From the IMG/VR virus record IMGVR_UViG_2663763339_000005, positions 1 to 45,686 of that record: 45,686 nt of DNA, one strand, 5' to 3'. Each line of letters starts with the position of its first letter. Position 1 is the stretch's first letter. Shown piece by piece: positions 6,377 to 38,739 of this stretch. The DNA comes from a virus. Lineage: Duplodnaviria; Heunggongvirae; Uroviricota; Caudoviricetes. A program made the position numbers and the translations under genes. The notes under the pieces were generated by a model. That model saw only the letters and a program-made list of their open reading frames with translations, was not told where the DNA came from and did not search any database.

Positions 6377-6916
6377 ATGCAACCACTTACATACCAACAG
6401 ACTAGCGGATTTAGCCCGACTGCGGTGATAAATCGTTCTCAAACAAAACAGGTGCCAGGCCACGAAAAAATCCGTGATGCCGTCCGCGCCTGGTCGGCTG
6501 AAGATAATCAGGATGTCGTTGCCGCACTCATTGTGAATGAGTATCGAGCACAGGGCGGCGGCACTATCGATTTTTCTGATGATGTCAGTCGTGCACGCCA
6601 GAAGCTGTTCCGCTTTCTCGATAACAAATTCGATTCTGAAAAATACCGAAATAACGTGCGTGAACTGACTCCAGCAATTCTGGCAGTACTACCGCTGAAA
6701 TATCGCGGCCACCTGGTTGAGCAGGATAGCTTCATGGCTCGGCTGGCTGAAATGGAAAAGGAACTCAGTGAGGCAAAACAGGCTGTCATTCTCAACGCAC
6801 CACGCCACCAGAAACTGAAGGAAATTAGTGAAGGTATTGTGTCGATGTTTCGTGTGGACCCAGATCTGGCTGGTCCATTGATGGCGATGGTTACTACCAT
6901 GCTGGGGGCGATATGA
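6377..6916 (+). CDS. YdaT-like regulatory protein in the cII position
   Basis: 179 aa following cro-like gene; resembles Rac-prophage YdaT family by position and composition (recalled, not searched). Confidence 0.4.
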   Translation: MQPLTYQQTSGFSPTAVINRSQTKQVPGHEKIRDAVRAWSAEDNQDVVAALIVNEYRAQGGGTIDFSDDVSRARQKLFRFLDNKFDSEKYRNNVRELTPAILAVLPLKYRGHLVEQDSFMARLAEMEKELSEAKQAVILNAPRHQKLKEISEGIVSMFRVDPDLAGPLMAMVTTMLGAI

Positions 6917-7002
6917 CAGGTTCAGAAATGGCGAAAGCCGGTCTGCTGGAACAGAACCGACTTTCAGGTGCAAATCGTAACACACTCATTGCGGGAGGAA
7001 TT

Positions 7003-8997: not shown

Positions 8998-9330
8998 ATG
9001 AACCCTTATATTTATCTTGGTGGTGCAATACTTGCAGAGGTCATTGGTACAACCTTAATGAAGTTTTCAGAAGGTTTTACACGGTTATGGCCATCTGTTG
9101 GTACAATTATTTGTTATTGTGCATCATTCTGGTTATTAGCTCAGACGCTGGCTTATATTCCTACAGGGATTGCTTATGCTATCTGGTCAGGAGTCGGTAT
9201 TGTCCTGATTAGCTTACTGTCATGGGGATTTTTCGGCCAACGGCTGGACCTGCCAGCCATTATAGGCATGATGTTGATTTGTGCCGGTGTGTTGGTTATT
9301 AATTTATTGTCACGAAGCACACCACATTAA
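8998..9330 (+). CDS. emrE: Small multidrug resistance efflux protein EmrE
   Basis: 110 aa from internal Met MNPYIYLGGAILAEVIGTTLMKFSEGFTRLWPS...; four TM helices; known moron of DLP12-type prophages. Confidence 0.92.
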   Translation: MNPYIYLGGAILAEVIGTTLMKFSEGFTRLWPSVGTIICYCASFWLLAQTLAYIPTGIAYAIWSGVGIVLISLLSWGFFGQRLDLPAIIGMMLICAGVLVINLLSRSTPH

Positions 9331-9360
9331 AAATAATTTGTTTCTAAACGACTAAAATAT

Positions 9361-9400
9361 GGAGGCTCTTATATTTATATGAGCCTCGTTTTATGCTTTT
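9361..9400 (+). terminator. Rho-independent terminator after emrE
   Basis: Hairpin GAGGCTC...GAGCCTC followed by GTTTTATGCTTTTTG. Confidence 0.65.
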
Positions 9401-9587
9401 TGTTAATGTCTTTATTTTTTTTATGTATTCTTTTGTGCTTTCAAGATTATGGCGTAAGAAAATTGCAATACGATTATTGTTGTATATTCAAGATAATGTG
9501 ACCTTAATTGTCTTTTTAAATAAAAATTAAACAAAAATTATATCTCACCACTAAGGTTTATAAAAGCATACGTTAGCAGGTGTCACC

Positions 9588-11114: not shown

Positions 11115-11225
11115 GTAATAATCACTTTTTCAACCGTGCTATAGTAAGAAAGTTAGGTAAGTACAATAAAATTATCTATCCTGAACGAAGCGTCCTGAGC
11201 TATGGTTTTACTATAGGGACTGCCA

Positions 11226-11543
11226 ATGGATGCTGGCGTTCTCGTTCTAGCAGTTCAACAATCCCCAATCACAAAACAATTCACTGATAACGAACTTTGC
11301 ACACTCGCCTGGTTATGGCGAGCAGGGAATGTGATGTTAATTGCCTACCAGAACGTTACTCATCTTCTTCAGGATGCGGAGCATGGTGAAGCTGGTCACT
11401 TCACTTCCATCGAGCAAGAATATCCCCAGATACTCAACAGAGCGCGAGCAATCCTCGTCCGAGAAACGGCACATGTAAAACTTCAGCCGTGGCAGGATGA
11501 TAAGTGGAGTCGAGTATTGCCGTATTTGCGTCAAATCTGTTAG
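11226..11543 (+). CDS. Hypothetical protein
   Basis: 105-aa ORF in AT-rich island between ybcK and the next ORF; no family recognised. Confidence 0.3.
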   Translation: MDAGVLVLAVQQSPITKQFTDNELCTLAWLWRAGNVMLIAYQNVTHLLQDAEHGEAGHFTSIEQEYPQILNRARAILVRETAHVKLQPWQDDKWSRVLPYLRQIC

Positions 11544-11747
11544 GAGTATAGCCGCCAGCCATGAGTGTTGTATTAAAACAAGGATGTCTATATATGGGAT
11601 AGCGAGAGTATGAATATCAGTTATTTTGAGAGTTAACTGATTGTGAAATTAGTTTTTTTCACAAACGAGTGGGGTTACTATGATGAGTGTTCTAATGCAT
11701 AGGGAACACCTAATTTTTTCAATGAATTCAAATTGATAGGATCAAAA

Positions 11748-12677
11748 ATGGCACAACAGAGAACTACCTCCCTCAGATCCATACCTTTAGACTTAGATGT
11801 TAAGCAAGAGGCTGTCATTAACGGTATAGAAATGGGGGTACTCGATAACGGAATTCCGTACCTTACTCAGAATGGGTTGGCAAATGTTTGTGGTGTTCAG
11901 CGTTTGCGAATCAAGGAAATTACCGATGAGTGGGCTCAATCCGTTGAGAACGGTATTTTCAAAAAAGGAAGAATGACTTTTATTGGTACATATCTTCTTA
12001 ATGAAGGTTTTACAGATGAAAAACTTTATATACCAATAATTCGAAATGGTGTTGAGTACCATGCTTATCCAGATGTTGTATGCATGGCTATACTTGAATA
12101 CTATGCCTTTGAAGCAAAACAAGCAGAAAGTGAGACTGCAATTAGATCTTACAGAGAGCTTGCTAAAAAAGGCCTCAAGACATTTATATACGAGGCGCTA
12201 AAATATCAACCGGAGGACCCGTGGAGGCATTACCATGACAGAGTATCTTTATTAAAAGATAAGGGAACCATACCTGATGGGTATTTCATTATATTTAATG
12301 AAATTGCAGGTATGATGGTAGATCTCATCAATGCTGGATTAGCGATTAATCAGCATACCGTACCTGATGGCAGTGTTGGTTCTTGCTGGGCGCGTCACTG
12401 GAAAGCAAAGGGGTTAGCAACAGAATTTGGAGAAAGAGTAGACTGTGAGCATTATTACCCTGAAGATTTTCTTCAGGCAAGTTCCAATCCTCAGATCATT
12501 AATGCCTATCCTGATTCTGCATTGTCAGAGTTTCGTAGATGGTTTAAGCATGAATATTTAACCACAAAGTTCCCACCGTATATTCTTAAAAAATCAAACG
12601 TGCTTCCTGGTGGTACAGAAGATGCTAATCGTCTGATAGAAGCTTTCAAAAAATCAGAGCTAGAAAATAAACCATAA
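11748..12677 (+). CDS. Hypothetical phage moron protein (possible antirepressor-like N-terminal domain)
   Basis: ORF 11733..12677; start at Met 11748 preceded by AGGA; ~309 aa; AT-rich; occupies the slot where K-12 DLP12 has ybcL/ybcM; function unassigned. Confidence 0.45.
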   Translation: MAQQRTTSLRSIPLDLDVKQEAVINGIEMGVLDNGIPYLTQNGLANVCGVQRLRIKEITDEWAQSVENGIFKKGRMTFIGTYLLNEGFTDEKLYIPIIRNGVEYHAYPDVVCMAILEYYAFEAKQAESETAIRSYRELAKKGLKTFIYEALKYQPEDPWRHYHDRVSLLKDKGTIPDGYFIIFNEIAGMMVDLINAGLAINQHTVPDGSVGSCWARHWKAKGLATEFGERVDCEHYYPEDFLQASSNPQIINAYPDSALSEFRRWFKHEYLTTKFPPYILKKSNVLPGGTEDANRLIEAFKKSELENKP

Positions 12678-14936: not shown

Positions 14937-16034
14937 TTAGAACTGGTAAACCAGACCTACAGCAACGATGTCATCAGTGCTTACACCGAGTGCTTTAGTG
15001 AAGTCATTTTTGTCAAGCAGGTTGATTTTGTAATCAACGAAAGTAGACATATTTTTGTTGAAGTAATAGGTTGCACCTACATCAACATATTTGACTAAGT
15101 CCTGATCGCCCCATACTCCAAGATCTTTACCTTTAGATTGCAGGTAAGCAACGGACGGACGCAGACCGAAATCGAACTGATATTGTGCAACAGCTTCGAA
15201 GTTTTGGGCTTTATTAGCAACGAAGTGATCAGCAAATACAGTCATATTCTGGGTTTCAGAATAGGTAGTGGCCAGGTAAATGTTGTTAGCGTCATATTTC
15301 AGACCTGCGGCCCAAACTTCTGCATTTTTACCGGAAGCAAATACTTCAGGAAGAACTTTCCCTGCATTAACTTGAGTGTCGGTACGATCAGATTTCGCAT
15401 AAGTTGCACCGATACCGAATCCTTCGTATTCATAGGTAGCAGAGAAACCGAAGCCATCACCGTTACCTTCAGTGTAGTTATCGAAATCGCTACGATCGTT
15501 TTTGCCTTGGTACTGAGCAGCAAAGTTCAGACCATCAACCAGACCAAAGAAGTCGTTGTTACGATAGGTTGCAACACCAGTGGTGCGACCAGTCATGAAC
15601 ACATCTGTTTGGGTCCAGGTATCGCCACCGAATTCTGGCAGAACGTCAGTCCACGCACCGATGTCGTATGCTACACCGTAGTTACGGCCGTAATCGATTG
15701 AGCCGTAGTCACCGAATTTCAGGCCTGCAAATGCAAGACGGGTTTTGTCTTTGGAGGAACCTTGAGATTCAGCGCGGTTGCCTTTGAATTCATATTCCCA
15801 CTGACCGAAACCAGTCAGTTGATCGTTGATTTGGGTTTCACCTTTGAAGCCAAGACGGGCATAAGTAGTATCACCATCATCTGCATCATTAGAGGAGAAG
15901 TAGTGCTTGGCATTAACTTTCCCGTACAGATCCAGCTTGTTACTGTCTTTATTATAAATTTCAGCTGCCTGAGCAGACATCGCCATCAGTACTGATGCAG
16001 CTACAGCAGAAATTGCCACTGTTAATTTTTTCAT
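14937..16034 (-). CDS. nmpC: Outer membrane porin NmpC (OmpC/OmpF family), intact
   Basis: 365 aa with signal peptide [23 protein letters not shown] and C-terminal ...VGLVYQF beta-barrel terminus; no IS interruption. Confidence 0.93.
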
Positions 16035-25005: not shown

Positions 25006-25281
25006 ATGTCGATTTACACAACCGCCCAGCTGCTGGCGGCAAATGAGCAGAAATTTAAGTTTGATCCGCTGTTTCTGCGTCTCTTTTTCCGTGAGAGCTA
25101 TCCCTTCACCACGGAGAAAGTCTATCTCTCACAAATTCCGGGACTGGTAAACATGGCGCTGTACGTTTCGCCGATTGTTTCCGGTGAGGTTATCCGTTCC
25201 CGTGGCGGATCCACCTCTGAATTTACACCGGGATATGTCAAGCCCAAGCACTTAGCATGGCTTTCTGAGGCTTTCGTGTAG
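25006..25281 (+). pseudogene. E: Major capsid protein E, 5' fragment (codons 1-81 intact, then 9 element-derived codons and stop), disrupted by insertion
   Basis: MSIYTTAQLLAANEQKFKFDPLFLRLFFRESYPFTTEKVYLSQIPGLVNMALYVSPIVSGEVIRSRGGSTSEFTPGYVKPKH matches lambda gpE N-terminus; divergence begins exactly after 25250. Confidence 0.92.
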
Positions 25282-25413: not shown

Positions 25414-26649
25414 ATGGCTGGCGAGAACAAACTGAGCGACAAAGCACTTAAAGGATATCTGGGGAAACCCAGAGAAAAGCAGATCACCATTGCTGATGGA
25501 AAGGGGCTTTCTATTCGTGTGAGTACCAAGGGGGCTGTGAGCTTTGTTTTCTTCTACAGGTTAGCAGGTGGCCGGGCTGCTCCGGTCTGGCTAACGTTGG
25601 GTAAATATCCTGATATGTCACTCAAACAGGCAAGGGAAAAGCGCGACGAGTGCCGTGGTTGGTTGGCTGACAAACGTGATCCGCGTATCCAGATTAAGAT
25701 TCAGGCTGAAGAACGCTTAAAGCCGGTCACAGTGGAGGATGCACTAAATTACTGGTATGAAAATTACTGTAAGGTGCGTCGTAAAACTCATGCTGTAACG
25801 CTTGGCAGATTTCGAAAGCATATCTTTCCCTATATCGGTCATTTGCCCGTAAATGACACTCACCTATATGAATGGCTGGACTGTTTTGACCGAATTAAAC
25901 GTAATGCACCAGTTATGGCGGCGTATGTTTTTTCTGACACTAAATTAGCTCTTCGTTTTTGTCGGGTACGCCAGTACGCGACGTGTGATGCTTTAAAGGA
26001 TTTGCGCATGAGTGATGTGGGGCAGATTGCAGGTAAGCGGGATCGGGTTCTGGATGAAGCCGAACTGGGCCAGCTCTGGAAGGCAATTTTTGTCGAGCCT
26101 GATTTAAAACTAATGTCTGAATACACGCGAAAAATGTTTGTGCTTTGTACAGTATTTGGATGTCGAATGAGTGAAGCCCGATTATCTGAATGGAGCGAAT
26201 GGGATCTCGAAAGTTGGGTTTGGACTGTACCAAAAGATCACTCAAAAACTGGTGTTGAAATCGTCAGACCAGTACCTGAAATTCTACGACAGTGGGTAAC
26301 GGATGTTCACGAAGAGACAAAACATACTGGTTATGTGCTGGGAAGTCTGCGAATTAGAGAAAGCGTAAGCAAGATTGGGGGGAAAATCGGTAAACGTTTG
26401 GGCCATGAAAAACAATGGTCACTACACGACCTTAGAAGAACGCTATCTACTCATCTAAGTGATCTCGGTGTTGAATTTTATGTAGTAGAACAACTGTTAG
26501 GCCATGCGCTACCTGGCGTGGCAGGTGTTTACAACCGGAGTAAGTTTATGGCTAAAAAACTGGATGCTCTGGAACTCTGGACTACATATCTCAATAGCAT
26601 CGCAGGTGCTGATTCAAAAGTGACAATCCTCAAACAAAAGGCTGGTTAA
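25414..26649 (+). CDS. Tyrosine integrase, P4-like family (element integrase)
   Basis: ORF 25282..26649; start at Met 25414 (MAGENKLSDKALKGY...); C-terminal HDLRRT...GH...Y catalytic motifs; adjacent to left attachment junction. Confidence 0.88.
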   Translation: MAGENKLSDKALKGYLGKPREKQITIADGKGLSIRVSTKGAVSFVFFYRLAGGRAAPVWLTLGKYPDMSLKQAREKRDECRGWLADKRDPRIQIKIQAEERLKPVTVEDALNYWYENYCKVRRKTHAVTLGRFRKHIFPYIGHLPVNDTHLYEWLDCFDRIKRNAPVMAAYVFSDTKLALRFCRVRQYATCDALKDLRMSDVGQIAGKRDRVLDEAELGQLWKAIFVEPDLKLMSEYTRKMFVLCTVFGCRMSEARLSEWSEWDLESWVWTVPKDHSKTGVEIVRPVPEILRQWVTDVHEETKHTGYVLGSLRIRESVSKIGGKIGKRLGHEKQWSLHDLRRTLSTHLSDLGVEFYVVEQLLGHALPGVAGVYNRSKFMAKKLDALELWTTYLNSIAGADSKVTILKQKAG

Positions 26650-26650
26650 C

Positions 26651-26878
26651 ATGAAAAAAATGGCAATTGTTGATAAAAAGGGTCTGGAGTACATTCCTAA
26701 CATCGATCGTATGATCCGTGAGAAAGAATGTCGGGAGCTAACCACTCTTGCAAACAGCACACGCTGGAAGCTGGAGAAGGAAGGAAAATTTCCTAAGCGG
26801 ATCAAGATTGGTTCCACTGCTGTTGCATATCGTCTTTCAGAAGTGCAGGCATGGATTCGAGGTGAGTGGGTAGTTTAA
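26651..26878 (+). CDS. AlpA-like transcriptional regulator/excisionase
   Basis: 75 aa; ...RELTTLANSTRWKLEKEGKFPKRIKIGSTAVAYRLSEVQAWI is a typical AlpA HTH; directly downstream of integrase. Confidence 0.8.
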   Translation: MKKMAIVDKKGLEYIPNIDRMIREKECRELTTLANSTRWKLEKEGKFPKRIKIGSTAVAYRLSEVQAWIRGEWVV

Positions 26879-27834: not shown

Positions 27835-28137
27835 TTATTCAGATTCTTTGGCTTTACGCCGCTGGAGTTCTTCACGAGCGACGGCTACGAGTTGCCCGAT
27901 TTCCTCCGCTGCCTTGATGCCGATTTGTTCGACCTTAGCTAAGGCATCCAGTGAAGACACGAGGGGATTTTCTCCGCTTCCTTCTGCCTGGCGGCGGGCG
28001 ATCTCACCGCGCATGGCGGTTACTATGAATCCGGCGTTGCTTTCGCCGTCCAGTTTTACGGATTCCATGCCCTCCATAACATCGTGGGGAACCCTGATCG
28101 TTGTCATTTGCGATTTTGCATTTTTGTATACAGACAT
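27835..28137 (-). CDS. Putative ribbon-helix-helix transcriptional repressor of the element
   Basis: 100 aa; N-terminal TTIRVPHDVMEGMESVKL...GFIVTAMRGEIARRQ fits beta-strand/helix/helix RHH pattern; divergent from operon containing primase across an operator-rich region. Confidence 0.5.
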   Translation of the reverse strand: MSVYKNAKSQMTTIRVPHDVMEGMESVKLDGESNAGFIVTAMRGEIARRQAEGSGENPLVSSLDALAKVEQIGIKAAEEIGQLVAVAREELQRRKAKESE

Positions 28138-28139
28138 AG

Positions 28140-28345
28140 TTAATCACCAATTTGTTATGTGTATATCACTATACACAAAAGTGAGATATAAAAACACTTG
28201 CAATGTATATCACCACAATATAATGTATATCTCACATTATGGTAGCTATGTATCTCACAATGATCGATTCATAAAAACGACGAAACCCGGCAGTGCGCGA
28301 ACACTAACCGGGCTTCTAACCAAACCGTTAAACGAGGTAACGACT
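28140..28345. promoter_or_regulatory. Operator-rich divergent promoter region of the element
   Basis: Repeated TGTATATC(A/T)CAC-like motifs in both orientations (tgtgtatatcactatacaca, gtgagatata, tgtatatcacc, tgtatatctcac, tgtatctcac). Confidence 0.55.
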
Positions 28346-28711
28346 ATGGCTGGAACACAGCATACCCAAACTCACCCTAAATTTATATACATCTTTCTGG
28401 CGCTACATCGCGATCGCATAGCAGATGGAGCAACTACGGTACATGTAGCCGCTGACACGCTGGTTGATGCCCGCAAGATGGTTAAGGAGATGGGCTATAC
28501 TGCGGCTTTCTGGAAAGGGCGGGAAGAAAACACGCTGTTTATTCAGAAATGTGAAAACAATTTCATCTGGCGTTTTATCGCCCTGAGTACGGCACAACCG
28601 CGCGTGATTACCATCGAGGCCACCAGCGAACAGGAAGCCCGCCAGCAATCCCCAACTGGCTGCGTGATGATATTCGCCGCCCGTATTCGTCAGGAGGTGT
28701 GCCATGAATGA
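28346..28711 (+). CDS. Hypothetical protein, first gene of element rightward operon
   Basis: ORF 27797..28711 trimmed to Met 28346 preceded by GAGG; 121 aa; internally repeated small domain; function unknown. Confidence 0.45.
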   Translation: MAGTQHTQTHPKFIYIFLALHRDRIADGATTVHVAADTLVDARKMVKEMGYTAAFWKGREENTLFIQKCENNFIWRFIALSTAQPRVITIEATSEQEARQQSPTGCVMIFAARIRQEVCHE

Positions 28712-28928
28712 TCTTTATTTTAAAGTGCTGACACATGCTGAAAACGCGCTCGTTTGTGGCAAAAATATGCGAGAAATCTTATCAACTTGGCTTGATGGGA
28801 CAACAAATGCGGAACACGATGAACGGGATGCTAATTTAGCTGGAGCGTTAATTACGTTACTTGATCCTGTCATCAAAGAGCTGGATGAAGCTATAAAAAT
28901 ACACGACCAGAGCTATACCGGAGAATAA
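28704..28928 (+). CDS. Hypothetical protein
   Basis: 74-aa ORF translationally coupled to upstream gene. Confidence 0.4.
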   Translation: MNDLYFKVLTHAENALVCGKNMREILSTWLDGTTNAEHDERDANLAGALITLLDPVIKELDEAIKIHDQSYTGE

Positions 28929-28930
28929 AA

Positions 28931-29218
28931 ATGAAAAATAAATTTTCTGGCTTTATTGCCAGCGGTCAAACTCATTCAAAAATCAGCCTTGGGGATATTT
29001 TCAAAGATAGCTATGGCTATCGAGTAAAGATTATTTCGGTTGATGATCGCCGTGTCTCTTATTTGCGTGATGGTTATGATTTTGAATGTGTTATGCCGCG
29101 TCAGCAGTTCGAAAGAGATTTCATTCTGGTAAAAAATTGCAAGACAGATAATCAGAGGCGTGCCGCAGGCTATATCCGCAAAATTCGGGCAATGTTAGTT
29201 GCCGGAGGTAACAAATGA
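28931..29218 (+). CDS. Hypothetical protein
   Basis: 95-aa ORF immediately upstream of and overlapping primase start. Confidence 0.4.
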   Translation: MKNKFSGFIASGQTHSKISLGDIFKDSYGYRVKIISVDDRRVSYLRDGYDFECVMPRQQFERDFILVKNCKTDNQRRAAGYIRKIRAMLVAGGNK

Positions 29219-31035
29219 AACGTGCTCCGAACTTAAAATACCAACCGCGCGACAAAATGACAGAAGTCATCATTTTTGCTGGCAGTGATGCCTGGAGCCA
29301 TGCAAAAGAATGGAATGAATGGGCGGGTAAGCATATTGCAGCAGATGATACACCACCAGTAATTCTGGGTACGGAACAACTGGAAAACCTGGATGATATG
29401 CAAATTATCGATGAAGGCCGTCATTATGTGCGTGTTTATCGTGCCGGAAAGATCGCAGAGAAAAATCTGACGAAGGTTGCGACATTACTTGCTATTGCAG
29501 GCGTAAAGGAAGCACGTTGTTACCGTAGCTTTGTTGATCGAGAGCCTGAAGACTGGACTCCGCGCCTTGTCGGCCTAAAAGCTGAAGCGGAGCATGGGGA
29601 AAGTCTGGTGATTGAACTGCCAGTGAAGAAGGCAGAGCGCAAAAATGACGAGCGTGCTTCATCTTTGGCGTTGAATCAGATGGGGGCCAGCCAGCGCGGT
29701 GAAGTTCTCCTGGCACATTACGGCGGCGAACTGGCAATCAATGCCGACTCTGACACCGTTCATCATTACAACGGCGTTGTATGGGAGCCGGTTCAGGATA
29801 AAGAGTTACAGCGTGCTATGGCGCAGATTTTCATTGATGCGGAGATCAGCTATTCGCAGAACGCCATTAAATCGGCGGTAGATACCATGAAGTTAAGTTT
29901 GCCTGTAATGGGGAATACAGCCCGTAACCTGATTGGATTCAGTAACGGGGTATTTGATACCAGAACAGGTAATTTTCGGGATCATAACAAAAACGACTGG
30001 TTGTTAATTGCCAGTGAATTACCTTTCAGCCCACCAGCAGAGGGGGAAACGCTGGCAACACATGCGCCGAATTTCTGGAAGTGGTTGCGCCGTTCGGTGG
30101 CTGAGAATGACCGCAAGGCAGATCGCGTACTGGCGGCATTATTCATGGTGCTGGCGAACCGGTACGACTGGCAGTTATTCATTGAGGTAACAGGGCCGGG
30201 GGGAAGTGGTAAAAGCGTGATGGCGGAGATTTGCACCATGCTGGCGGGTAAGGCTAATACAGTATCAGCAAGCATGAAGGCGCTGGAAGATGCAAGGGAA
30301 CGTGCGTTAGTGGTTGGCTTTTCGCTGATTATCATGCCGGATATGACCCGCTACGCTGGTGATGGGGCAGGGATTAAGGCCATTACAGGCGGTGACAAGG
30401 TGGCAATTGACCCGAAACACAAAGCCCCCTATTCAACGCGTATTCCGGCAGTAGTGCTGGCGGTTAACAATAACGCCATGTCATTCAGTGACCGCAGCGG
30501 GGGGATCTCACGTCGTCGGGTGATATTCAATTTTTCGGAAGTTGTACCGGAGAACGAACGCGATTCGATGCTGGCGGAAAAAATAGAAGGTGAGCTGGCG
30601 GTAGTGATTCGTCATCTGCTTACACGGTTTGCTGATCAGGACGAAGCCAGACGCCTGTTATATGAGCAGCAGAAATCTGAAGAAGCACTGGCGATAAAGC
30701 GAGAGGGGGATTCGCTGGTGGACTTCTGCGGCTATCTCATGGCATCGGTAATGTGTGATGGCCTGTTAGTGGGTAATGCTGAAATTGTGCCATTCAGCCC
30801 ACGCAGGTATCTCTATCATGCCTATCTGGCTTATATGAGGGCACATGGGTTTGGTAAACCTGTAACACTGACGCGCTTCGGTAAAGATATGCCGGGGGCA
30901 ATGGCGGAATATGGCAGGGAGTATATGAAACGGAAAACGAAGCACGGTTTGCGTTCAAACGTGACACTGACGGAGGAATCAGAAGACTGGATGCCATCAT
31001 GTGTATCGGTCACTAATGACGATAGCAAAAATTAA
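29215..31035 (+). CDS. Primase/helicase, phage-plasmid P4-family (D5_N + SF3 helicase-like C-terminal domain)
   Basis: 606 aa; Walker A GPGGSGKS; region NGVFDTRTGNFRDHNKNDW...; followed by iteron array. Confidence 0.85.
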   Translation: MKRAPNLKYQPRDKMTEVIIFAGSDAWSHAKEWNEWAGKHIAADDTPPVILGTEQLENLDDMQIIDEGRHYVRVYRAGKIAEKNLTKVATLLAIAGVKEARCYRSFVDREPEDWTPRLVGLKAEAEHGESLVIELPVKKAERKNDERASSLALNQMGASQRGEVLLAHYGGELAINADSDTVHHYNGVVWEPVQDKELQRAMAQIFIDAEISYSQNAIKSAVDTMKLSLPVMGNTARNLIGFSNGVFDTRTGNFRDHNKNDWLLIASELPFSPPAEGETLATHAPNFWKWLRRSVAENDRKADRVLAALFMVLANRYDWQLFIEVTGPGGSGKSVMAEICTMLAGKANTVSASMKALEDARERALVVGFSLIIMPDMTRYAGDGAGIKAITGGDKVAIDPKHKAPYSTRIPAVVLAVNNNAMSFSDRSGGISRRRVIFNFSEVVPENERDSMLAEKIEGELAVVIRHLLTRFADQDEARRLLYEQQKSEEALAIKREGDSLVDFCGYLMASVMCDGLLVGNAEIVPFSPRRYLYHAYLAYMRAHGFGKPVTLTRFGKDMPGAMAEYGREYMKRKTKHGLRSNVTLTEESEDWMPSCVSVTNDDSKN

Positions 31036-31048
31036 ACTTATGGAATAA

Positions 31049-31280
31049 CTGTTCACCACTGTTCACCCTGTCATAAATATCTTTTATATCAGTATATTAT
31101 AGGGTGAACAGTTATTTATGAACTGTTCACCAAACTATTCACTGTTCACCTTTTTGATTGTTTATTGAGCTTCAAGGGTGAACAGTGGTGAACAGTTGGT
31201 GAATAGTTTTTGTGAAACTGTTCACCCATTAACATTATGAATTAAAAGAGAAAATATCAAAAGGTGAACAGGTGAAGGGT
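31049..31280. repeat. Element replication origin: ~10 copies of TGTTCACC/GGTGAACA iterons in both orientations
   Basis: ctgttcaccactgttcaccc, gggtgaacagtt, gaactgttcacc, cactgttcacc, gggtgaacagtggtgaacagttggtgaatag, actgttcaccc, aggtgaacaggtgaaggg read directly. Confidence 0.8.
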
Positions 31281-31322
31281 TAAAACGCAAAAATTTTAAT
31301 TTACTGCTGTGAGATAAAGCCT

Positions 31323-31568
31323 ATGACAGCGAAGCACACAAAAAAATCACAATCGCACGCCCTTGATTTGACGGAACACTGGTTAAGGGTGTCGATAAAA
31401 ATCATCGACCGCAACGCCGGGGAAGGATACGCGAAAGCACATCCCGAACTGATTAGCGCATTCATGACAACGGCGGCTGCAAACTTTGCCACTCTGACCG
31501 AACGGGAGATTGCTGAAGCGGAGGAAGTGACAACAATCAATATTAAGTCCGGAGAGCAGGCAGCATGA
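31323..31568 (+). CDS. Hypothetical protein
   Basis: 81-aa ORF downstream of ori, coupled to SSB gene. Confidence 0.4.
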   Translation: MTAKHTKKSQSHALDLTEHWLRVSIKIIDRNAGEGYAKAHPELISAFMTTAAANFATLTEREIAEAEEVTTINIKSGEQAA

Positions 31569-32014
31569 CGGCGCAAATATCAGTTTACGGGCGGTTGGTG
31601 GACGACCCGCAGACAAAACAGACCAGCAAGGGCACCCCCATGACGCTGGCGCGTATGGCGGTATCACTGCCCTGCAGTCAGTCGGATGACGGTCAGGCGA
31701 CGATGTGGTTATCTGTCCTGGCGTTTGGCAGACAAGCCGACGCGCTGGCAAAGCATCACAAAGGCGAACTCCTGAGCGTGGCGGGTAACATGCAGATGAG
31801 CCAGTGGACTGGACAGAACGGCGAAACGCGGCAGGGCTGGCAGGTTATCGCAGACAGCGTAATCAGTGCGCGATCGGTGCGACCGGGCGGCAATAAAGGC
31901 CAACAGGGGCAGGCTACTGACGCACTGAACAGAGCAAAACAACAGGCAGATCAGCAAGGAAGCCAGCCACCAGTGGGAGATAATGAGCAATGGGGAGATG
32001 ATATCCCGTTTTAA
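31565..32014 (+). CDS. Single-stranded DNA-binding protein (SSB)
   Basis: 149 aa; OB-fold N-terminus, Gly/Gln-rich linker and acidic C-terminal tail ...GDDIPF characteristic of SSB. Confidence 0.85.
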   Translation: MTAQISVYGRLVDDPQTKQTSKGTPMTLARMAVSLPCSQSDDGQATMWLSVLAFGRQADALAKHHKGELLSVAGNMQMSQWTGQNGETRQGWQVIADSVISARSVRPGGNKGQQGQATDALNRAKQQADQQGSQPPVGDNEQWGDDIPF

Positions 32015-32231
32015 ATATTGCCAATAAAAAAAGGCCGGAAAAAATAAATTTTCCGGCATGCTACATAAATCCCGACCAAAGGGAGTGAAGATATTAACAC
32101 TAATTTTCCGCACTGAAGTTGTCACCCCAAAACTTTATACAACATTGCACTCGGTTGCATGTATTCGCATGACAAATATCGGTGATAGCATATATCCACA
32201 ATTATTTTTAATGAATGCAAAGAGGATGCGT

Positions 32232-33272
32232 ATGGTTGATTTATATTCGCCTACTCAGCTTGTACAGGTGGTTAATGCTGTAGATGTACAAAAACAACTA
32301 AATGCGTTGTTTACCAGTTTGTTTTTTACTCGCTCGGTAATGTTTGAATCGCGCGATATTATTCTTGATACAATCGACGATCCAAATATCCCAATTGCAG
32401 CGTTTTGTTCTCCTATGGTGGGTAGTAAAGTTTCACGTGACGAAGGGTACGAATCAAAAACAATTCGTCCAGGCTATATGAAGCCGAAAAGCAGCATTGA
32501 TCCAAATAAGTTAGCTGTGCGCCCTGCTGGTGTATCACCTGAGCAATACAATGCTTTTGGGGCGCGTAATATTAAAGTTAAACAGGCGATTGTAAATCAA
32601 GCTAAAGCTATTCGTGCACGTATTGAATGGCTTGCTGTTCAGGCAATCACAACGGGGAAAAATATCATTGAGGGCGATGGTATTGAACGTTATGAGCTGG
32701 ACTGGAATATTAAACCACAAAATATCATCACTCAGTCTGGCGGTGCTGAGTGGTCAGGTAAGGATAAAGAAACTTTTGATCCAAATGATGATATTGAGAG
32801 CTACGCAGAATTTAGTGAGGGCGTCACTAATATTATCATTATGGGCGGTAATGTATGGAAGAAATACCGTTCATTCAGAGCGATAAAAGAGGCTCTGGAT
32901 ACCCGTCGTGGTTCTAATTCCGAACTGGAAACGGCCCTTAAAGACCTTGGTGATTCGGTGAGTTTTAAAGGGTATATGGGCGATGTTGCGATTGTTGTTT
33001 ACAGCGGGCGTTATACCGACGAGGACGGAACAGAAAAACATTTCCTTGATCCTGATTTGATGGTGCTTGGCAATACGGCTCTTCAGGGGATTGTCGCCTA
33101 TGGCGGTATTCAGGATCCGGAGCTAATCCGAATGGGGCTGACTAAAGCCGAACTTGCACCGAAAAACTATATTGTGCCTGGTGATCCGGCTATTGAATAT
33201 GTGCAGACACATTCAGCACCACAGCCAATACCGGCCCGCATCAATCGTTTTGTTACCGTTCGCATTGGCTAA
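32232..33272 (+). CDS. Major capsid protein, lambda gpE family (element-encoded divergent paralogue)
   Basis: ORF 32058..33272; start Met 32232 preceded by AGAGGA; clear alignment to lambda E (ITQSGGAEWSGKDKETFDPNDDIESYAEF...NIIIMGGNVWKKYRSFRAIKEALDTRRGSNSELETALKDLG..YKG..GDVAIVVYSG); ~346 aa versus 341 for lambda E. Confidence 0.88.
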   Translation: MVDLYSPTQLVQVVNAVDVQKQLNALFTSLFFTRSVMFESRDIILDTIDDPNIPIAAFCSPMVGSKVSRDEGYESKTIRPGYMKPKSSIDPNKLAVRPAGVSPEQYNAFGARNIKVKQAIVNQAKAIRARIEWLAVQAITTGKNIIEGDGIERYELDWNIKPQNIITQSGGAEWSGKDKETFDPNDDIESYAEFSEGVTNIIIMGGNVWKKYRSFRAIKEALDTRRGSNSELETALKDLGDSVSFKGYMGDVAIVVYSGRYTDEDGTEKHFLDPDLMVLGNTALQGIVAYGGIQDPELIRMGLTKAELAPKNYIVPGDPAIEYVQTHSAPQPIPARINRFVTVRIG

Positions 33273-33281
33273 GGGGGAGCA

Positions 33282-33623
33282 ATGGCTACTCATTACACTG
33301 AACTCATGGCTGGCACTGAAGCACTGGTGACTACGCTGGGGATATTTTCAGCTAATAAAGGGGTAATTCCTGCATTTACGCCACTGATGCAGGAAGATGC
33401 AACAGGTGCACTGGTAGTATGGGATGGTTCGAGCGTAGGTAAAGCGGTTTATGTTTCCGCTGTACAAATCGACACCGCGAAAAAAACACAGGCTCAGGTC
33501 TATAAGACAGGTGTCTTAAATGTTGATGCTCTGAACTGGCCTGAGTCTGTTAAAGAACTGTCAGTAAAGGTTGCAGCGTTTGTTGGCTCAGGTATTTCTG
33601 TTCAGCCGCTGGCTCGTGTGTAA
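33282..33623 (+). CDS. Head decoration protein, lambda gpD family (element-encoded divergent paralogue)
   Basis: 113 aa; PLMQEDATGALVVWDGSSVGKAVYVSAV...YKTGVLNVDALNWPE...FVGSGISV aligns with gp[28 protein letters not shown]...[15 protein letters not shown]...FAGTAISI. Confidence 0.8.
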   Translation: MATHYTELMAGTEALVTTLGIFSANKGVIPAFTPLMQEDATGALVVWDGSSVGKAVYVSAVQIDTAKKTQAQVYKTGVLNVDALNWPESVKELSVKVAAFVGSGISVQPLARV

Positions 33624-33634
33624 AGGGGGATACA

Positions 33635-34018
33635 ATGCAGAATGATTACAATGACCTTAAGCCAATTGCCGAAATGATGTACCCGAATCAAGCTGTAGAG
33701 GAATTAAAAGCTATCGCTGACAAAATGTGTTTAAGCGAGCGCCTTGTTGATATGAATCAGGTGATGGAAATTACAACCCTGAGTCGTCGTACACTGCTAA
33801 ACCTTGAGGCTAGTGGAGAGTTCCCGGAGCGTGTGCAGGTTACGGAAGGGCGTAAGGCCTGGTATTTAAGTGAAGTGATCGACTGGATAAATAATATTCC
33901 TCGCGCTTCTGAATATTGCCGCGTACCTGTCCCAAAAAAGCCAGATGCGGCGCTATGCCTCAAGATTGAGCGTGTACGCCGCAATGCACGGGATGGTCGC
34001 TATAAGCTGATTGGTTGA
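33635..34018 (+). CDS. Small HTH protein adjacent to element cos (candidate packaging-redirection / Nu1-like DNA-binding factor)
   Basis: 127 aa; MNQVMEITTLSRRTLLNLEASGEFPERVQVTEGRKAWYLSEVIDWI is a MerR/AlpA-like winged HTH; ends just upstream of cos-like site. Confidence 0.45.
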   Translation: MQNDYNDLKPIAEMMYPNQAVEELKAIADKMCLSERLVDMNQVMEITTLSRRTLLNLEASGEFPERVQVTEGRKAWYLSEVIDWINNIPRASEYCRVPVPKKPDAALCLKIERVRRNARDGRYKLIG

Positions 34019-34029
34019 TGAAATTAGGG

Positions 34030-34250
34030 CCCGCTCTGGCTGGCGGGTCCTTTCCGGCGATCCAGGACGTTACGGGGCGTCAGGCGCGCAGATTCTTGCT
34101 ATTTATGACAATTTTCTGCGATTTGCCGTTTCTGTTCTTCTTCGTTGTAACTATATGTTATTAATGGAAATGCCACCTAAAAAGAAAGGAAATGGTAAGC
34201 GCTATTTTGAGCTAAAAACAGCTTAACCGTTTCCTTTCTCCAAAATTTAC
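34030..34250 (+). other. Element cos-like site (lambda-like cosQ, variant cosN GGGCGTCAGGCG at 34075-34086, cosB-like R/IHF elements)
   Basis: ggcgggtcctttccggcgatccaggacgttacgGGGCGTCAGGCGcgcagattcttgctatttatgacaattttctgcgatttgccgtttctgttcttcttcg...aaaaagaaaggaaatgg aligns block-by-block with the helper cos at 18840-19040. Confidence 0.8.
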
Positions 34251-34260
34251 TGAGGCGGCT

Positions 34261-34686
34261 ATGAATCCATGCGCAGAAGTCATGACAACTATCAAACTAA
34301 GCGGATCTTTAGCTTCTTTGTTCGCCAGAGAACATCAGCGCCTTATCGGTCCGACGCGTGAGGCATTAAGGGTATTATCAGCCACTATTCCGGGATTTGA
34401 GAAATTCATGAACACTAGCAAGGCTTGAGGACTCACTTTCGCCGTGTTTGTGGATAAAAATAATGTCGCGCAGGATGATCTCGATTTTCCAAATGGTGGT
34501 CGTACGATTCGAATTGTTCCGATCATTATGGGGAGTAAGCGTGCTGGTGTTCTGCAAACCATTCTTGGCGCTTTCTTGGTGGTTGGTGGTGTTCTGGGGG
34601 CAACGATAGGGCAAGCATGGAACGGTGGTGTGTGGAGCGGCAAGTATTTTCTATTGGCAGAAGCCCATTCCGCCAAGATAGGCTAG
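34261..34686 (+). pseudogene. Tail assembly protein I-like ORF interrupted by a single in-frame TGA (34426-34428)
   Basis: N-part MNPCAEVMTTIKLSGSLASLFAREHQRLIGPTREALRVLSATIPGFEKF and C-part ...RTIRIVPIIMGSKRAGVLQTILGAFLVVGG resemble helper gpI (LYGDLQRFGRRIDLRVKTGAEAIRALATQLPAFRQKL / AVIHIVPRVAGAKSGGVFQIVLGAAAIAG); same frame across the stop. Confidence 0.45.
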
Positions 34687-34781
34687 ACGTATAAGATCGG
34701 TTACAATCTATAAATCAGCTGTTGAATTATTGAATTTTAACCATATTTATCAGATGGACTTCATTCAAAAAGGTAACTTTG

Positions 34782-35468
34782 ATGGCCGGACAATTAGACG
34801 AAGCAGCAAAACAGATTTTGGGTACCTTACTGGCAGATTTTACAGATCGAGGGTTAACTGCACAGGATTTAAAAAATGGTTATGAAGGCCCGAACATCAA
34901 TGCGCTAGCTACTGCAGTATGCAACGTCGCTGATTTTACATCTGTAGATTTTGAAGTTGCCTTTGGCGATCTCGAAAAAAGCAAACTAATCAAAACTGGC
35001 CCCATGAAAATGTTCGATAATGATCACAATAGCTCTGTGATCATTATTGCTTCTTATAGCCTACGTGAATATGTTTATTTGACGGAGGCTGGATACAAGG
35101 AGTCCAGGAAAGTACCAAATCGCCCACAACGTGTTCAGCGTATAGTCAATAATCTAACGATCACCGGCGGACATTTCAGCAATACGCAATTAGGGCAGGG
35201 AGAGGTCGTTTCCCAAACCCAAAACATCACAAGCAGTTCCGATTCTGAAATAGTTGCTAAGCTGATTTCTATCATTGAAGAACAGGGGCAAGTAGTTAAC
35301 AGCGATCAACGTTCTGATATTGAAGCAGCTGTGGCAGCCGCTAATGAAGGTGATGGTAAAGAAGCGAAATCATTGCTGTCTAAAGTATGCGGTCCTGTTT
35401 GGGAGTCTGTGCAACCAGTAATATGGCCGATCATTGGTGAGTTGGTTAAGAAAGGGCTCGGGATTTAA
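34782..35468 (+). CDS. Hypothetical protein (element cargo, unknown function)
   Basis: ORF 34779..35468; ATG 34782 preceded by AGGT; 228 aa, acidic, no recognised family. Confidence 0.45.
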   Translation: MAGQLDEAAKQILGTLLADFTDRGLTAQDLKNGYEGPNINALATAVCNVADFTSVDFEVAFGDLEKSKLIKTGPMKMFDNDHNSSVIIIASYSLREYVYLTEAGYKESRKVPNRPQRVQRIVNNLTITGGHFSNTQLGQGEVVSQTQNITSSSDSEIVAKLISIIEEQGQVVNSDQRSDIEAAVAAANEGDGKEAKSLLSKVCGPVWESVQPVIWPIIGELVKKGLGI

Positions 35469-35660
35469 TTTAATAAATTCTAAAAGGGCTGTTTGGGTAG
35501 TATTTTTATGGGGCTCTTCAATTAAAAGGAGTCATAGGGTCAAACGATGTGCCTATGACTCCTGGATAAAGCCATCAGAGAATATTAGTGTTAACAATTT
35601 CTCTTCAGCCCTTGTTTATACGATGCCAGCTTCAGAACCGAATCAACGCTCATGCGATCT

Positions 35661-35954
35661 TTAGCATCTCGGTAATGACAGTAAGTTATTATTCCATCGA
35701 CCATCAGCATAAGTACGTATAAATTTCCGCCCTCCCCCTCCTGGATCAACGACACCTACATCAGCACGTTTGCCATAACTATCAGTGACATAGAAAGTAT
35801 GTAACTTGTTCTCAATTGAATTAACTACATCTGCCACAGTCCACTTACTTCCAGGGGGATTAAATTGAGGGCTTCCCACATGAGTAATGTGTTCATGAAG
35901 GGCGTTCGAACTGGAGAGAGTAATACAAGTTAATCGTACATCAACCATCTTCAA
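35661..35954 (-). CDS. Hypothetical small protein, possibly DUF3892-like (element cargo near right junction)
   Basis: 97 aa with ITHVG and NNLLSLPRC motifs recalled as DUF3892-like; opposite strand, AT-rich. Confidence 0.4.
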   Translation of the reverse strand: MKMVDVRLTCITLSSSNALHEHITHVGSPQFNPPGSKWTVADVVNSIENKLHTFYVTDSYGKRADVGVVDPGGGGRKFIRTYADGRWNNNLLSLPRC

Positions 35955-36174
35955 CTCCTTATTTACTGTGAAAAATCATAAGATACAGCATGTATCGAAA
36001 TACAGCAGGGTGAACAATTTCGATTTACGAGGACTTAGCAAAGTCTCTTTCTCTTAAACTGTGGGCTTGTATTGCAGGTTGTATTGCAACTGTAGCTAAG
36101 CAATATCAGTTGTAAGCTTTATTTCTTTTACAGTCAATCGTATAGCATCGTATTTGACTCATGTAGCCCAAGCA

Positions 36175-36955
36175 TGAGGTGAATCCGCAGATGACCCTGC
36201 GTCGCCTGCCGGATGAAGATCCACAGAATCTGGCGGACCCGGCTTACCGCCGCCGTCGCATCATCCTGCAGAACATGCGAGACGAAGAGCTGGCCATTGC
36301 TCAGGTCGAAGAGATGCAGGCAGTTTCTGCCGTGCTTAAGGGCAAATACACCATGACCGGTGAAGCCTTCGATCCGGTTGAAGTGGATATGGGCCGCAGT
36401 GTGGCGAACAACATCACGCAGTCCGGCGGTACGGAGTGGAGCAAGCGTGACAAGTCCACGTATGACCCGACCGACGATATCGAAGCCTACGCGCTGAACG
36501 CCAGCGGTGTGGTGAATATCATCGTGTTTGATCCGAAAGGCTGGGCGCTGTTCCGTTCCTTCAAAGCCGTCAGGGAGAAGCTGGATACCCGTCGCGGCTC
36601 TAATTCCGAGCTGGAGACAGCGGTAAAAGACCTGGGCGAAGCGGTGTCCTATAAGGGGATGTATGGCGATACGGCGATCGTCGTGTATTCCGGACAGTAC
36701 GTGGAAAACGACGTCAAAAAGAACTTCCTTCCGGACAACACGATGGTGCTGGGGAACACTCAGGCACGCGGTCTGCGCACCTATGGCTGCATTCAGGATG
36801 CGGACGCACAGCGCGAAGGTATTAACGCCTCTGCCCGCTACCCGAAAAACTGGGTGACCACCGGCGATCCGGCGCGTGAGTTCACCATGATTCAGTCAGC
36901 ACCGCTGATGCTGCTGGCTGACCCTGATGCGTTCGTGTCCGTACAACTGGCGTAA
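36175..36955 (+). pseudogene. E: Major capsid protein E, 3' fragment (codon 82 to stop), separated from 5' fragment by the inserted element
   Basis: ...HEVNPQMTLRRLPDEDPQNLADPAYRRRRIILQNMRDEELAIAQVEEMQ... matches lambda gpE; in-frame TAG immediately upstream of the junction; 245 nt (5' part) + 781 nt = 1026 nt, the exact length of lambda E. Confidence 0.92.
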
Positions 36956-36996
36956 TCATGGCCCTTCGGGGCCATTTTCTCTCTGTGGAGGAGTCC

Positions 36997-37392
36997 ATGA
37001 CGAAAGATGAACTGATTGCCCGTCTTCAGGTGCTGGGTGAGCAACTGAACCGTGATGTCAGCCTGACGGGGACGAAAGAAGAACTGGCACTCCGTGTGGC
37101 AGAGCTGGAAGAGGAGCTTGATGACACGGATGACGCTGCCGGTCAGGACACATCTGTCAGCCCGGAAAATGCGCTGACCGGACATGAAAATGAGGTTGTA
37201 TCAGCGCAGCCGGATACCGTGATTGATACGGCTGATCTGGTCACGGTTGTGGCACTGGTGACGCTGCATACTGATGCACTTCACGCCACGCGGGATGAGG
37301 CTGTGGCATTTGTGCTGCCGGGAACGGCGTTCCGTGTCTCTGCCGGTGTGGCAGCTGAAATGACAGAGCGCGGCCTGGCCAGAATGCAATAA
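36997..37392 (+). CDS. FI: DNA packaging protein FI
   Basis: ORF 36958..37392 with start at MTKDELIARL...; matches lambda gpFI. Confidence 0.92.
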   Translation: MTKDELIARLQVLGEQLNRDVSLTGTKEELALRVAELEEELDDTDDAAGQDTSVSPENALTGHENEVVSAQPDTVIDTADLVTVVALVTLHTDALHATRDEAVAFVLPGTAFRVSAGVAAEMTERGLARMQ

Positions 37393-37403
37393 CGGGAGGC
37401 GCT

Positions 37404-37757
37404 GTGGCTGATTTCGATAACCTGTTCGATGCTGCCATTGCCTGCGCCGATGAAACGATACGCGGGTACATGGGAACGTCAGCCACCATGACATCCGGTG
37501 AGCAGTCCGGTGCTGTGATACGTGGTGTTTTTGATGACCCTGAAAATATCAGCTATGCCGGACAGGGCGTGCGCGTTGAAGGCTCCAGCCCGTCCCTGTT
37601 TGTCCGGACTGATGATGTGCGGCAGCTGCGGCGCGGCGACACGCTGACCATCGGTGAGGAAAACTTCTGGATAGACCGGATTTCGCCGGATGATGGCGGA
37701 AGCTGTCATCTCTGGCTTGGGCGGGGCGTACCGCCTGCCGTTAACCGTCGCCGCTGA
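37404..37757 (+). CDS. FII: Head-tail connector FII
   Basis: 117 aa matching lambda gpFII (MADFDNLFDAAIA.ADETIRGYMGTSATMTSGEQSGAVIRGVFDDPENISYAGQG...). Confidence 0.94.
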   Translation: MADFDNLFDAAIACADETIRGYMGTSATMTSGEQSGAVIRGVFDDPENISYAGQGVRVEGSSPSLFVRTDDVRQLRRGDTLTIGEENFWIDRISPDDGGSCHLWLGRGVPPAVNRRR

Positions 37758-37768
37758 AAGGGGGATGT

Positions 37769-38347
37769 ATGGCCATAAAAGGTCTTGAGCAGGCCGTTGA
37801 AAACCTCAGCCGTATCAGCAGAACGGCGGTGCCCGGTGCCGCCGCAATGGCCATTAACCGCGTTGCTTCATCCGCGATATCGCAGTCGGTGTCACAGGTT
37901 GCCCGTGAGACAAAGGTACGCCGGAAACTGGTAAAGGAAAGGGCCAGGCTGAAAAGGGCCACGGTCAAAAATCCGCAGGCCAGAATCAAGGTTAACCGGG
38001 GGGATTTGCCCGTAATCAAGCTGGGTAATGCGCGGGTTGTCCTTTCGCGCCGCAGGCGTCGTAAAAAGGGGCAGCGTTCATCCCTGAAAGGTGGCGGCAG
38101 CGTGCTTGTGGTGGGTAACCGTCGTATTCCCGGCGCGTTTATTCAGCAACTGAAAAATGGCCGGTGGCATGTCATGCAGCGTGTGGCCGGGAAAAACCGT
38201 TACCCCATTGATGTGGTGAAAATCCCGATGGCGGTGCCGCTGACCACGGCGTTTAAACAAAATATTGAGCGGATACGGCGTGAACGTCTTCCGAAAGAGC
38301 TGGGCTATGCGCTGCAGCATCAACTGAGGATGGTAATAAAGCGATGA
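37769..38347 (+). CDS. Z: Tail completion protein Z
   Basis: 192 aa matching lambda gpZ. Confidence 0.93.
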   Translation: MAIKGLEQAVENLSRISRTAVPGAAAMAINRVASSAISQSVSQVARETKVRRKLVKERARLKRATVKNPQARIKVNRGDLPVIKLGNARVVLSRRRRRKKGQRSSLKGGGSVLVVGNRRIPGAFIQQLKNGRWHVMQRVAGKNRYPIDVVKIPMAVPLTTAFKQNIERIRRERLPKELGYALQHQLRMVIKR

Positions 38348-38739
38348 AACATACTGAACTCCGTGCAGCCGTACTGGATGCACTGGAGAAGCATGACACC
38401 GGGGCGACGTTTTTTGATGGTCGCCCCGCTGTTTTTGATGAGGCGGATTTTCCGGCAGTTGCCGTTTATCTCACCGGCGCTGAATACACGGGCGAAGAGC
38501 TGGACAGCGATACCTGGCAGGCGGAGCTGCATATCGAAGTTTTCCTGCCTGCTCAGGTGCCGGATTCAGAGCTGGATGCGTGGATGGAGTCCCGGATTTA
38601 TCCGGTGATGAGCGATATCCCGGCACTGTCAGATTTGATCACCAGTATGGTGGCCAGCGGCTATGACTACCGGCGCGACGATGATGCGGGCCTGTGGAGT
38701 TCAGCCGATCTGACTTATGTCATTACCTATGAAATGTGA
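38344..38739 (+). CDS. U: Tail terminator protein U
   Basis: 131 aa matching lambda gpU ([54 protein letters not shown]...). Confidence 0.94.

Follow-up and report, generated by a model that had tools for sequence, protein, structure and literature searches.

What replicates a satellite that lies inside the capsid gene of its own helper prophage? The question is raised by a stretch of viral DNA of 45,686 nucleotides (IMG/VR record IMGVR_UViG_2663763339_000005, positions 1 to 45,686, class Caudoviricetes; called the window in the following), in which the gene for a 606-aa protein is followed directly by a dense array of short repeats. The original prediction was that the two are the primase and the origin of a phage-inducible chromosomal island (PICI), supporting autonomous replication of the excised element. 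According to the analysis presented here, the region is probably the module that replicates a helper-embedded PICI of the 11capE type, with one initiator-helicase and its cognate origin. It should be pointed out that the element and the pri-rep-ori arrangement have both been published, which means that the finding as such is already known. The analysis adds to this in several ways: the origin is mapped exactly, its iteron and the layout of a half-origin are shown to be identical to those in the ori of satellite phage P4, iteron and origin-binding domain are seen to covary in three PICI alleles, the gene is recognised as a mosaic of two modules, and the 'primase' turns out to be without any recognisable primase domain.

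The gene, of the Pri-Rep initiator-helicase type, is located at 29215-31035 on the + strand, and its 606-aa product is identical to WP_000817023.1. Pfam places a D5_N domain at aa 163-292 (29701-30090, +; PF08706, E=1.3e-13), DUF5906, a P-loop domain of helicase superfamily 3 (SF3), at 326-434, and Pox_D5 at 497-592. The SF3 ATPase core as a whole spans aa 326-449 (30190-30561, +; matches to PF19263 and PF00519), and it is followed by a predicted C-terminal winged-helix origin-binding domain (OBD) at aa 497-596 (30703-31002, +; PF03288, E=2.9e-12). The Walker A motif GPGGSGKS that had been noticed in the sequence is present at aa 327-334 (nt 30193-30216), and the other SF3 motifs were also located, namely a Walker B ending in IIMPD376, motif C LAVNNN at 415-420 and the arginine cluster SRRRV at 432-436. 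All of these are invariant in an alignment of the window protein with P4 alpha and the Pri-Rep protein of the PICI EcCICFT073. The predicted D5_N/SF3 architecture is thus confirmed, and the protein has the D5_N domain and SF3 helicase core of the P4 alpha family. Among the structures in the PDB, 7OLA (a chain named 'DNA primase' there) matches aa 238-441 with E=3e-10, and 1KA8, which represents the origin-binding domain of P4 alpha as a C-terminal fragment of 100 residues, matches the C-terminal 100 aa with E=1.9e-24.

The first repeat starts 13 bp past the stop codon of this open reading frame (ORF). In the window, we counted 12 copies of the octamer TGTTCACC, compared to 1.49 expected, and none of 100 shuffles reached this number. 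Nine of the 12 copies are found within 31050-31270 (221 bp), five on the + strand and four on the − strand. The repeat unit is the 9-mer CTGTTCACC, which has nine exact copies in 31049-31280. When one mismatch is allowed, three degenerate copies are added (ca 31133-31141, 31198-31206 and 31272-31280), to give 12 sites in ca 232 bp, in good agreement with the suggested ten or so mixed-orientation iterons over 230 bp directly downstream of the gene.

The sites make up a dyad with the layout 2-1-3|3-1-2. In the left half-origin (31049-31150), iterons are located at 31049(+), 31059(+), 31103(−), 31123(+), ca 31133(+, degenerate) and 31142(+), with an AT-rich spacer of 35 bp (31068-31102, 80% AT) between those at 31059 and 31103. 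The right half-origin (31177-31280) has iterons at 31177(−), 31187(−), 31198(−, degenerate), 31218(+), 31263(−) and 31272(−, degenerate), and its AT-rich spacer of 36 bp (31227-31262, 83% AT) is between those at 31218 and 31263. A central spacer of 26 bp (31151-31176, 73% AT) separates the two halves, the centre of the dyad being near 31163. When the right unit is reverse-complemented, its identity to the left one is 69%, and the origin contains two inverted repeats, I1 of 54 nt (74% complementary) and I2 of 36 nt (83%). Sets of iterons flanking AT-rich DNA directly 3' of the replication gene are what characterises a PICI origin. Since this is the only iteron cluster in the whole element, nothing else there could serve as ori. 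In a five-way alignment of origins, the iteron columns were found to be 76% invariant, compared to 43% for the spacers (Fisher p=1e-7).

The origin has neither DnaA boxes nor GATC sites, and three matches resembling integration host factor (IHF) sites are present, with one mismatch each. A scan of 30800-31700 found no promoter or terminator, and a search of the whole window against Rfam at gathering thresholds gave no RNA family. As there is no terminator-like hairpin at 31036-31048 either, transcription of the replication gene should read through the origin into the two genes that follow it, for an 81-aa protein (ORF81) and a single-stranded DNA-binding protein (SSB). A full-text literature search for the bare octamer TGTTCACC returned only primer lists. 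Another option considered was that the repeats act as cos or pac, but this was rejected, since they are the iteron of P4 ori and the layout fits validated origins.

P4 alpha is a single protein that recognises the origin and acts as both helicase and primase. For the comparison with P4, the biochemistry was drawn in part from the GenBank annotation and reference titles. In the GenBank record, 8-bp repeats in both ori and crr are annotated as 'ori type 1 repeat'; their sequence is identical to TGTTCACC, and the copies in P4 ori form GGTGAACAG 9-mers. Moreover, window positions 31171-31280 align column for column with P4 ori 9300-9420, the shared pattern being three iterons, one opposed iteron, an AT-rich spacer of ca 36 bp and two iterons. 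The distal end of the right half-origin also resembles the P4 crr repeat unit, and the position of the array, directly 3' of the helicase gene, is that of crr in P4. At the protein level, aa 149-596 of the window protein, that is, the helicase and the OBD, are 51% identical to alpha 323-771. There are also clear differences. While P4 has an ori and, 4.7 kb away, a separate crr, which are both required in cis, the window has one compound dyad origin, a single cluster of two inverted ori-like units. The rho-independent terminator t-alpha that P4 annotates between alpha and crr (4604-4628) has no counterpart, and the window protein lacks the zinc ribbon and the catalytic Toprim domain of alpha. 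In the remaining element, which is not P4-like, we saw none of the genes sid, psu, delta and cnr.

A validated replicon of the same kind is that of EcCICFT073, located at 27931-38655 of the compared locus L008. The two elements share the order DUF4222 gene, pri-rep, ori, small ORF, SSB gene and, further on, capsid and decoration genes, and their Pri-Rep proteins are 44% identical end to end, including the N-terminal domain (598 aligned positions, E=1e-171). The origin of EcCICFT073 is likewise a 2-1-3|3-1-2 dyad with AT-rich spacers, in which copies of CTGTCTACC are arranged as two +, AT-rich spacer, one −, three +, centre, three −, one +, spacer and two −. The iterons themselves are different, CTGTCTACC there and CTGTTCACC in the window, and the OBDs are only 33% identical; in addition, EcCICFT073 is integrated in the chromosome, while the element in the window is in a prophage. 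The pri-rep gene and ori of EcCICFT073 maintain a temperature-sensitive plasmid at the restrictive temperature, the loss of either one abolishes or reduces plasmid maintenance, and deletion of pri-rep lowers transfer ca 100-fold (Fillol-Salom et al. 2018, PMC6092414). The proposal of a PICI-type replication module is therefore well founded, in the sense of a P4 alpha-related SF3 initiator-helicase with an iteron origin, homologous to this validated replicon.

In a third allele, the same N-terminal domain is joined to a DUF927 helicase, after which there is an array of TGTTGTCCC. Three initiator types, each with its own iteron in the same place, are the expected signature of specific recognition. 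In line with this, the OBD of the window protein has 47.5% identity to the one of P4, where the iteron is the same, as compared to the 33% for EcCICFT073, where it is different. The covariation of iteron and OBD across the three alleles lends indirect support to a recognition of the iterons by the initiator. An element with the window's octamer is LR881103, 'Escherichia phage vB_KppS-Ant' (locus L003), a 16.5-kb induced element deposited as a phage. At 9938-11950, it encodes a replication protein that is 74% identical to that of the window, and the gene is followed by eight exact TGTTCACC copies. The element has its own terminase, portal and capsid genes, and looks thus like a capsid-forming satellite with the same initiator/iteron type.

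A more distant parallel is given by the Rep proteins of the Staphylococcus aureus pathogenicity islands (SaPIs), such as PriRep5, which are hexameric SF3/MCM-like initiator-helicases that have been proposed to self-load and whose C-terminal winged helix binds iterons (Qiao et al. 2022, PMC9371898; 7OLA). The SF3-type ATPase, the C-terminal winged helix and the iterons directly 3' of the gene are common to both systems. However, the sequence similarity is distant, the SaPI lineage is Gram-positive and its iterons are shorter.

The gene has a mosaic structure. Relative to three other E. coli loci (L004-L006), the protein identity of helicase and OBD is 88-98%, with dN/dS values of 0.03-0.13 that indicate purifying selection, while the N-terminal domain (window 29215-29694) has only 40-45%. 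To judge from this difference, the linker contains a recombination joint, at ca aa 130-160; a conserved LVIELPVKK stretch is found near this position. The origins of the three loci are 75-90% identical to that of the window, and the helicase/OBD cassette travels together with its origin. The N-terminal domain, on the other hand, reassorts independently of this cassette and fronts at least two unrelated helicase types. Since one of these is the DUF927 helicase, the N-terminal domain does not set the origin specificity. Among 5426 complete E. coli genomes, the origin is found in 688 and the 2.1-kb replication region in 764.

The satellite that carries the module is ca 10.9 kb long and bounded by a 10-bp att core, AGCCCAAGCA. 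The attL core at 25241-25250, the left end, is inside the major capsid gene of the helper prophage, and the attR core at 36165-36174 is the right end. The halves of the helper capsid gene, at ca 25006-25251 and 36179-36955, were located on either side by means of the uninterrupted but divergent (72-79% nt) capsid gene of the CFT073 icd prophage; capsid pseudogene halves are also annotated in near-identical loci. Terminase, portal and tail genes lie on the flanks of the split gene, and the satellite has the same orientation as this lambdoid capsid gene. As the gene is split, no helper capsid protein would be made until the satellite excises. Insertion of a whole satellite in a capsid gene is the published configuration of helper-embedded PICIs. 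The features by which PICIs have been defined (Fillol-Salom 2018), namely int, alpA, unidirectional genes and a length of ca 10-20 kb without lysis or tail genes, are seen here with int at 25414-26649, alpA at 26651-26878, 10.9 kb between the att cores and the annotation of identical loci.

The element is of the type Eco567.11capE, the founding helper-embedded PICI, already described by Tommasini, Mageeney & Williams (2023, PMC10111431). The two have a replication region that is 99.7% identical, the same gene order and the insertion in a lambdoid prophage capsid gene in common, and the att core of the window has the length of 10 bp given in the paper. They differ in the strain, in a 75-bp indel upstream and in the cargo, which is DUF3892 and a 229-aa ORF in the window and HEPN and DUF262 in 11capE. 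The word 'iteron' is absent from the text of the 11capE paper, which indicates that the iterons were not dissected there. The 2.1-kb replication region is also present with 100% identity in two E. coli chromosomes and with 99.7% identity in strain NRG857c. In the latter, integrase is followed by AlpA, YlcI/YnfO, Icd-like, DUF4222, 'DNA primase family protein', small ORF, SSB, major capsid, head decoration and another helix-turn-helix (HTH) gene. This block splits the major capsid gene of a lambdoid prophage, which has its terminase, portal and protease genes on the upstream side and its tail genes on the downstream side.

We now turn our attention to the 'primase' label. In place of the zinc ribbon and Toprim primase of P4 alpha, which Pfam finds at 30-66 (Zn_Ribbon_Prim) and 210-299 (Toprim_3), the window protein has an N-terminal alpha/beta domain (N-domain) of ca 130 aa (aa 1-130; 29215-29604, +), whose fold is weakly Toprim-like. 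The protein has no match to either Pfam family at E<=10, aa 1-155 have zero Pfam matches even at this threshold, and a standard Pfam scan gives no domain in aa 1-160. The similarity to P4 alpha starts at alpha 323; neither BLAST nor hhalign detects any to alpha 1-322, and when the N-domain family is compared to alpha 1-330 by hhalign, the probability is 0.4%. The 'primase' names derive instead from models that cover the helicase and the C-terminal part, and for one of these, TIGR01613 ('primase_Cterm'), the score of 94.2 is below the curated cut-off of 108.7.

A Toprim domain has its catalytic Glu after strand 1 and a DxD after strand 3. In the N-domain, strand 1 (18-22) ends in the invariant Ala22-Gly23, and strand 3 (71-76) corresponds to R73-V-Y75-R-A77-G78. 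These positions were assigned by secondary-structure position rather than by superposition; a MAFFT alignment put the P4 Toprim out of register and was left unused for residue equivalence. The N-domain is conserved but narrowly distributed, as an exhaustive profile search among 1.84 billion proteins gave no more than 132 representatives. Seventeen distant full-length members with 20-47% identity all have Ala, Val or Ile at position 22, and none of them has a DxD. The EGYATA motif and DxD of a P4-type catalytic Toprim are thus lacking in the window protein, the acids being missing family-wide, and so is the P4-type N-terminal zinc ribbon. The naming of the protein as a primase is not supported by this comparison: the N-domain is most likely non-catalytic and the protein an initiator-helicase that depends on another primase. 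It follows that the annotation 'DNA primase' in hundreds of E. coli genomes should be treated with caution, as it denotes a protein without a detectable primase domain. Metazoan Twinkle, a T7 gp4-like helicase with a primase-like domain considered catalytically inactive, can be mentioned as an analogy only, because it is an SF4 helicase while the window protein belongs to SF3. In rare E. coli proteins the Pri-Rep N-domain is fused directly to SSB, capsid protein or PerC (P0011, P0017, P0018, P0019, P0041, P0054 and P0058). These fusions look like in-frame deletions that took out the helicase, the origin and the intervening genes.

With these elements, and with P4 alpha and the SaPI Rep proteins as precedents, the following mechanism can be put forward. 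After expression of the satellite operon, the 606-aa protein would use its C-terminal winged-helix domain to bind the CTGTTCACC iterons, which would act as two inverted P4-ori-like units of six sites each. Neighbouring iterons are 9-11 bp apart, which would put the sites on one face of the helix. The bound protein would thereby be concentrated beside the spacers of 80-83% AT, where rings of the SF3 ATPase could melt the DNA, self-load and unwind it bidirectionally, and the single strands would be coated by the element's SSB. Since the protein lacks the zinc ribbon and catalytic Toprim of P4 alpha, the primers would most likely come from elsewhere. They could be made by host DnaG, possibly recruited via the DDIPF tail of the SSB or via the non-catalytic N-domain, or they could be read-through transcripts, as there is no terminator between gene and origin. 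DNA synthesis would then be carried out by host Pol III. The binding, the site of melting, the self-loading, the source of the primers and the part played by the N-domain are all inferred.

Two points weigh against the reading of the region as an active replication module with an initiator that does not prime. The N-domain could have a novel catalytic site, as the statement that there is no primase rests on the absence of detectable motifs, and its E17 and D25 are conserved among the E. coli members (D25 is Gly in the vB_KppS-Ant homologue). In addition, the claim of autonomous replication of the excised element is not supported by what was measured for the near-identical 11capE, for which the attP:attB ratio after excision was ca 1, that is, no autonomous replication, in two of three repeats, with a modest 1.6-1.9 in the third (PMC10111431). 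Autonomous replication may thus be weak or conditional.

The last observation is what one would expect if the module contributed little and the satellite were copied passively with the helper by means of the lambda O/P genes of the latter (window 6913-8630), the iterons and helicase being relics or of rare plasmid-like use. It is also consistent with the published qPCR, in which the composite of helper and 11capE satellite replicates before the satellite excises, so that passive replication is evident (PMC10111431). However, the ORF is intact, helicase and OBD have a low dN/dS, the iterons are more conserved than the spacers, the module is widespread (688-764 genomes), and it is also found in PICIs outside helpers, where the lack of pri-rep had the ca 100-fold effect on transfer (PMC6092414). 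We therefore regard mainly passive copying as quite improbable. The protein could alternatively, along the lines of the original prediction, be a true bifunctional primase-helicase like P4 alpha, self-priming and independent of host and helper primases. This is unlikely in our estimation, because the family matches span only the helicase and C-terminal part, with TIGR01613 below its cut-off, there is no counterpart of the P4 zinc ribbon and Toprim_3, and the positions expected for the Toprim Glu and DxD, as placed by secondary structure, have Ala/Val/Ile and R-x-Y or other non-acidic residues in 18 distant members of the family.

A further scenario is that the array is mainly regulatory or cis-acting, similar to P4 crr, as a roadblock or operator on the read-through into ORF81, SSB and the capsid genes. 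The crr-like position of the array fits with this, as does the lack of a terminator or promoter consensus before the downstream ORFs, which would place the bound initiator in the path of transcription. Nevertheless, the element has no other iteron cluster, the right half of the array matches P4 ori and not only crr, and deletion of the equivalent region in EcCICFT073 impairs plasmid maintenance (PMC6092414). A mainly regulatory array appears very improbable on these grounds, while a regulatory side-role would be compatible with origin function. The replication module with one initiator-helicase and its cognate origin remains thus the reading that we prefer.

Two more speculative ideas go beyond this reading, and we put them forward tentatively and with considerable doubt. 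In the first, what is called the 'primase' in Gram-negative PICIs would be a pseudo-primase, whose N-domain may recruit a host or helper primase or some other partner; the second concerns cross-talk with P4. If the N-domain were an adaptor of this kind, PICI replication would depend on an outside primase, unlike that of P4. The second idea stems from the shared iteron and the 47.5% identity of the OBDs, on the basis of which P4 alpha and the window protein may each fire or block the origin of the other. This would imply cross-activation or incompatibility between satellite families that parasitise different helpers. If either the priming dependency or the cross-talk with P4 were confirmed, it would be relevant to the way in which satellites share replication resources or compete for them.

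As to the neighbouring genes, a DUF4222 gene at 28931-29218 (+; PF13973, E=3.4e-22) precedes the replication gene, the start of which its stop codon overlaps (ATGA). A DUF4222 gene is in the same position in L008, L006 and L010, thus including EcCICFT073 and the DUF927-type allele, and from this conserved linkage it would appear to be part of the replication module. On the other side of the origin, the element-encoded SSB of 149 aa is found at 31565-32014 (+; PF00436, E=1.7e-16; TIGR00621 above the cut-off), and it ends in WGDDIPF, a host-type acidic SSB C-terminal tip. An SSB gene after the iterons had been predicted correctly, but it does not follow them immediately, as the conserved ORF81 at 31323-31568 (+; PHROG 1231, E=2.2e-48) intervenes, with its stop codon overlapping the SSB start. 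Equivalents of ORF81 are annotated in NRG857c and EcCICFT073.

Further downstream, the satellite has its own lambda E-like major capsid gene at 32232-33272 (PF03864, E=2.4e-41) and a gpD-like decoration gene at 33282-33623 (PF02924), which duplicate two helper functions that adjoin its insertion site. For EcCICFT073, it is known from the literature that transfer does not need the PICI capsid genes. The capsid block is ended by a second HTH gene of the AlpA family at 33635-34018 (PF05930, E=7.5e-9), the first alpA being beside the integrase gene. The cargo at the right end varies by strain. In the window, it consists of the 229-aa ORF at 34779-35468 (+), which has no Pfam match, and the DUF3892 gene at 35661-35954 (−), while in NRG857c (L001 17308-19024) the same place is occupied by the HEPN and DUF262 pair, which looks like a defence system. 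Upstream of the module, at ca 28137-28421, the window and NRG857c differ in length by 75 bp between the YlcI/YnfO-like and Icd-like genes; the Icd-like ORF is annotated with 366 nt in a 100%-identical locus and with 291 nt in NRG857c.

Finally, the helper prophage has, downstream of its O/P genes, a gene for a large serine recombinase at 9588-11114 (+), with Resolvase, Recombinase and Zn_ribbon_recom domains. It also has a full-length OmpC-type porin gene at 14937-16034 (−), and an ompC gene is likewise present in the uninterrupted CFT073 icd prophage.

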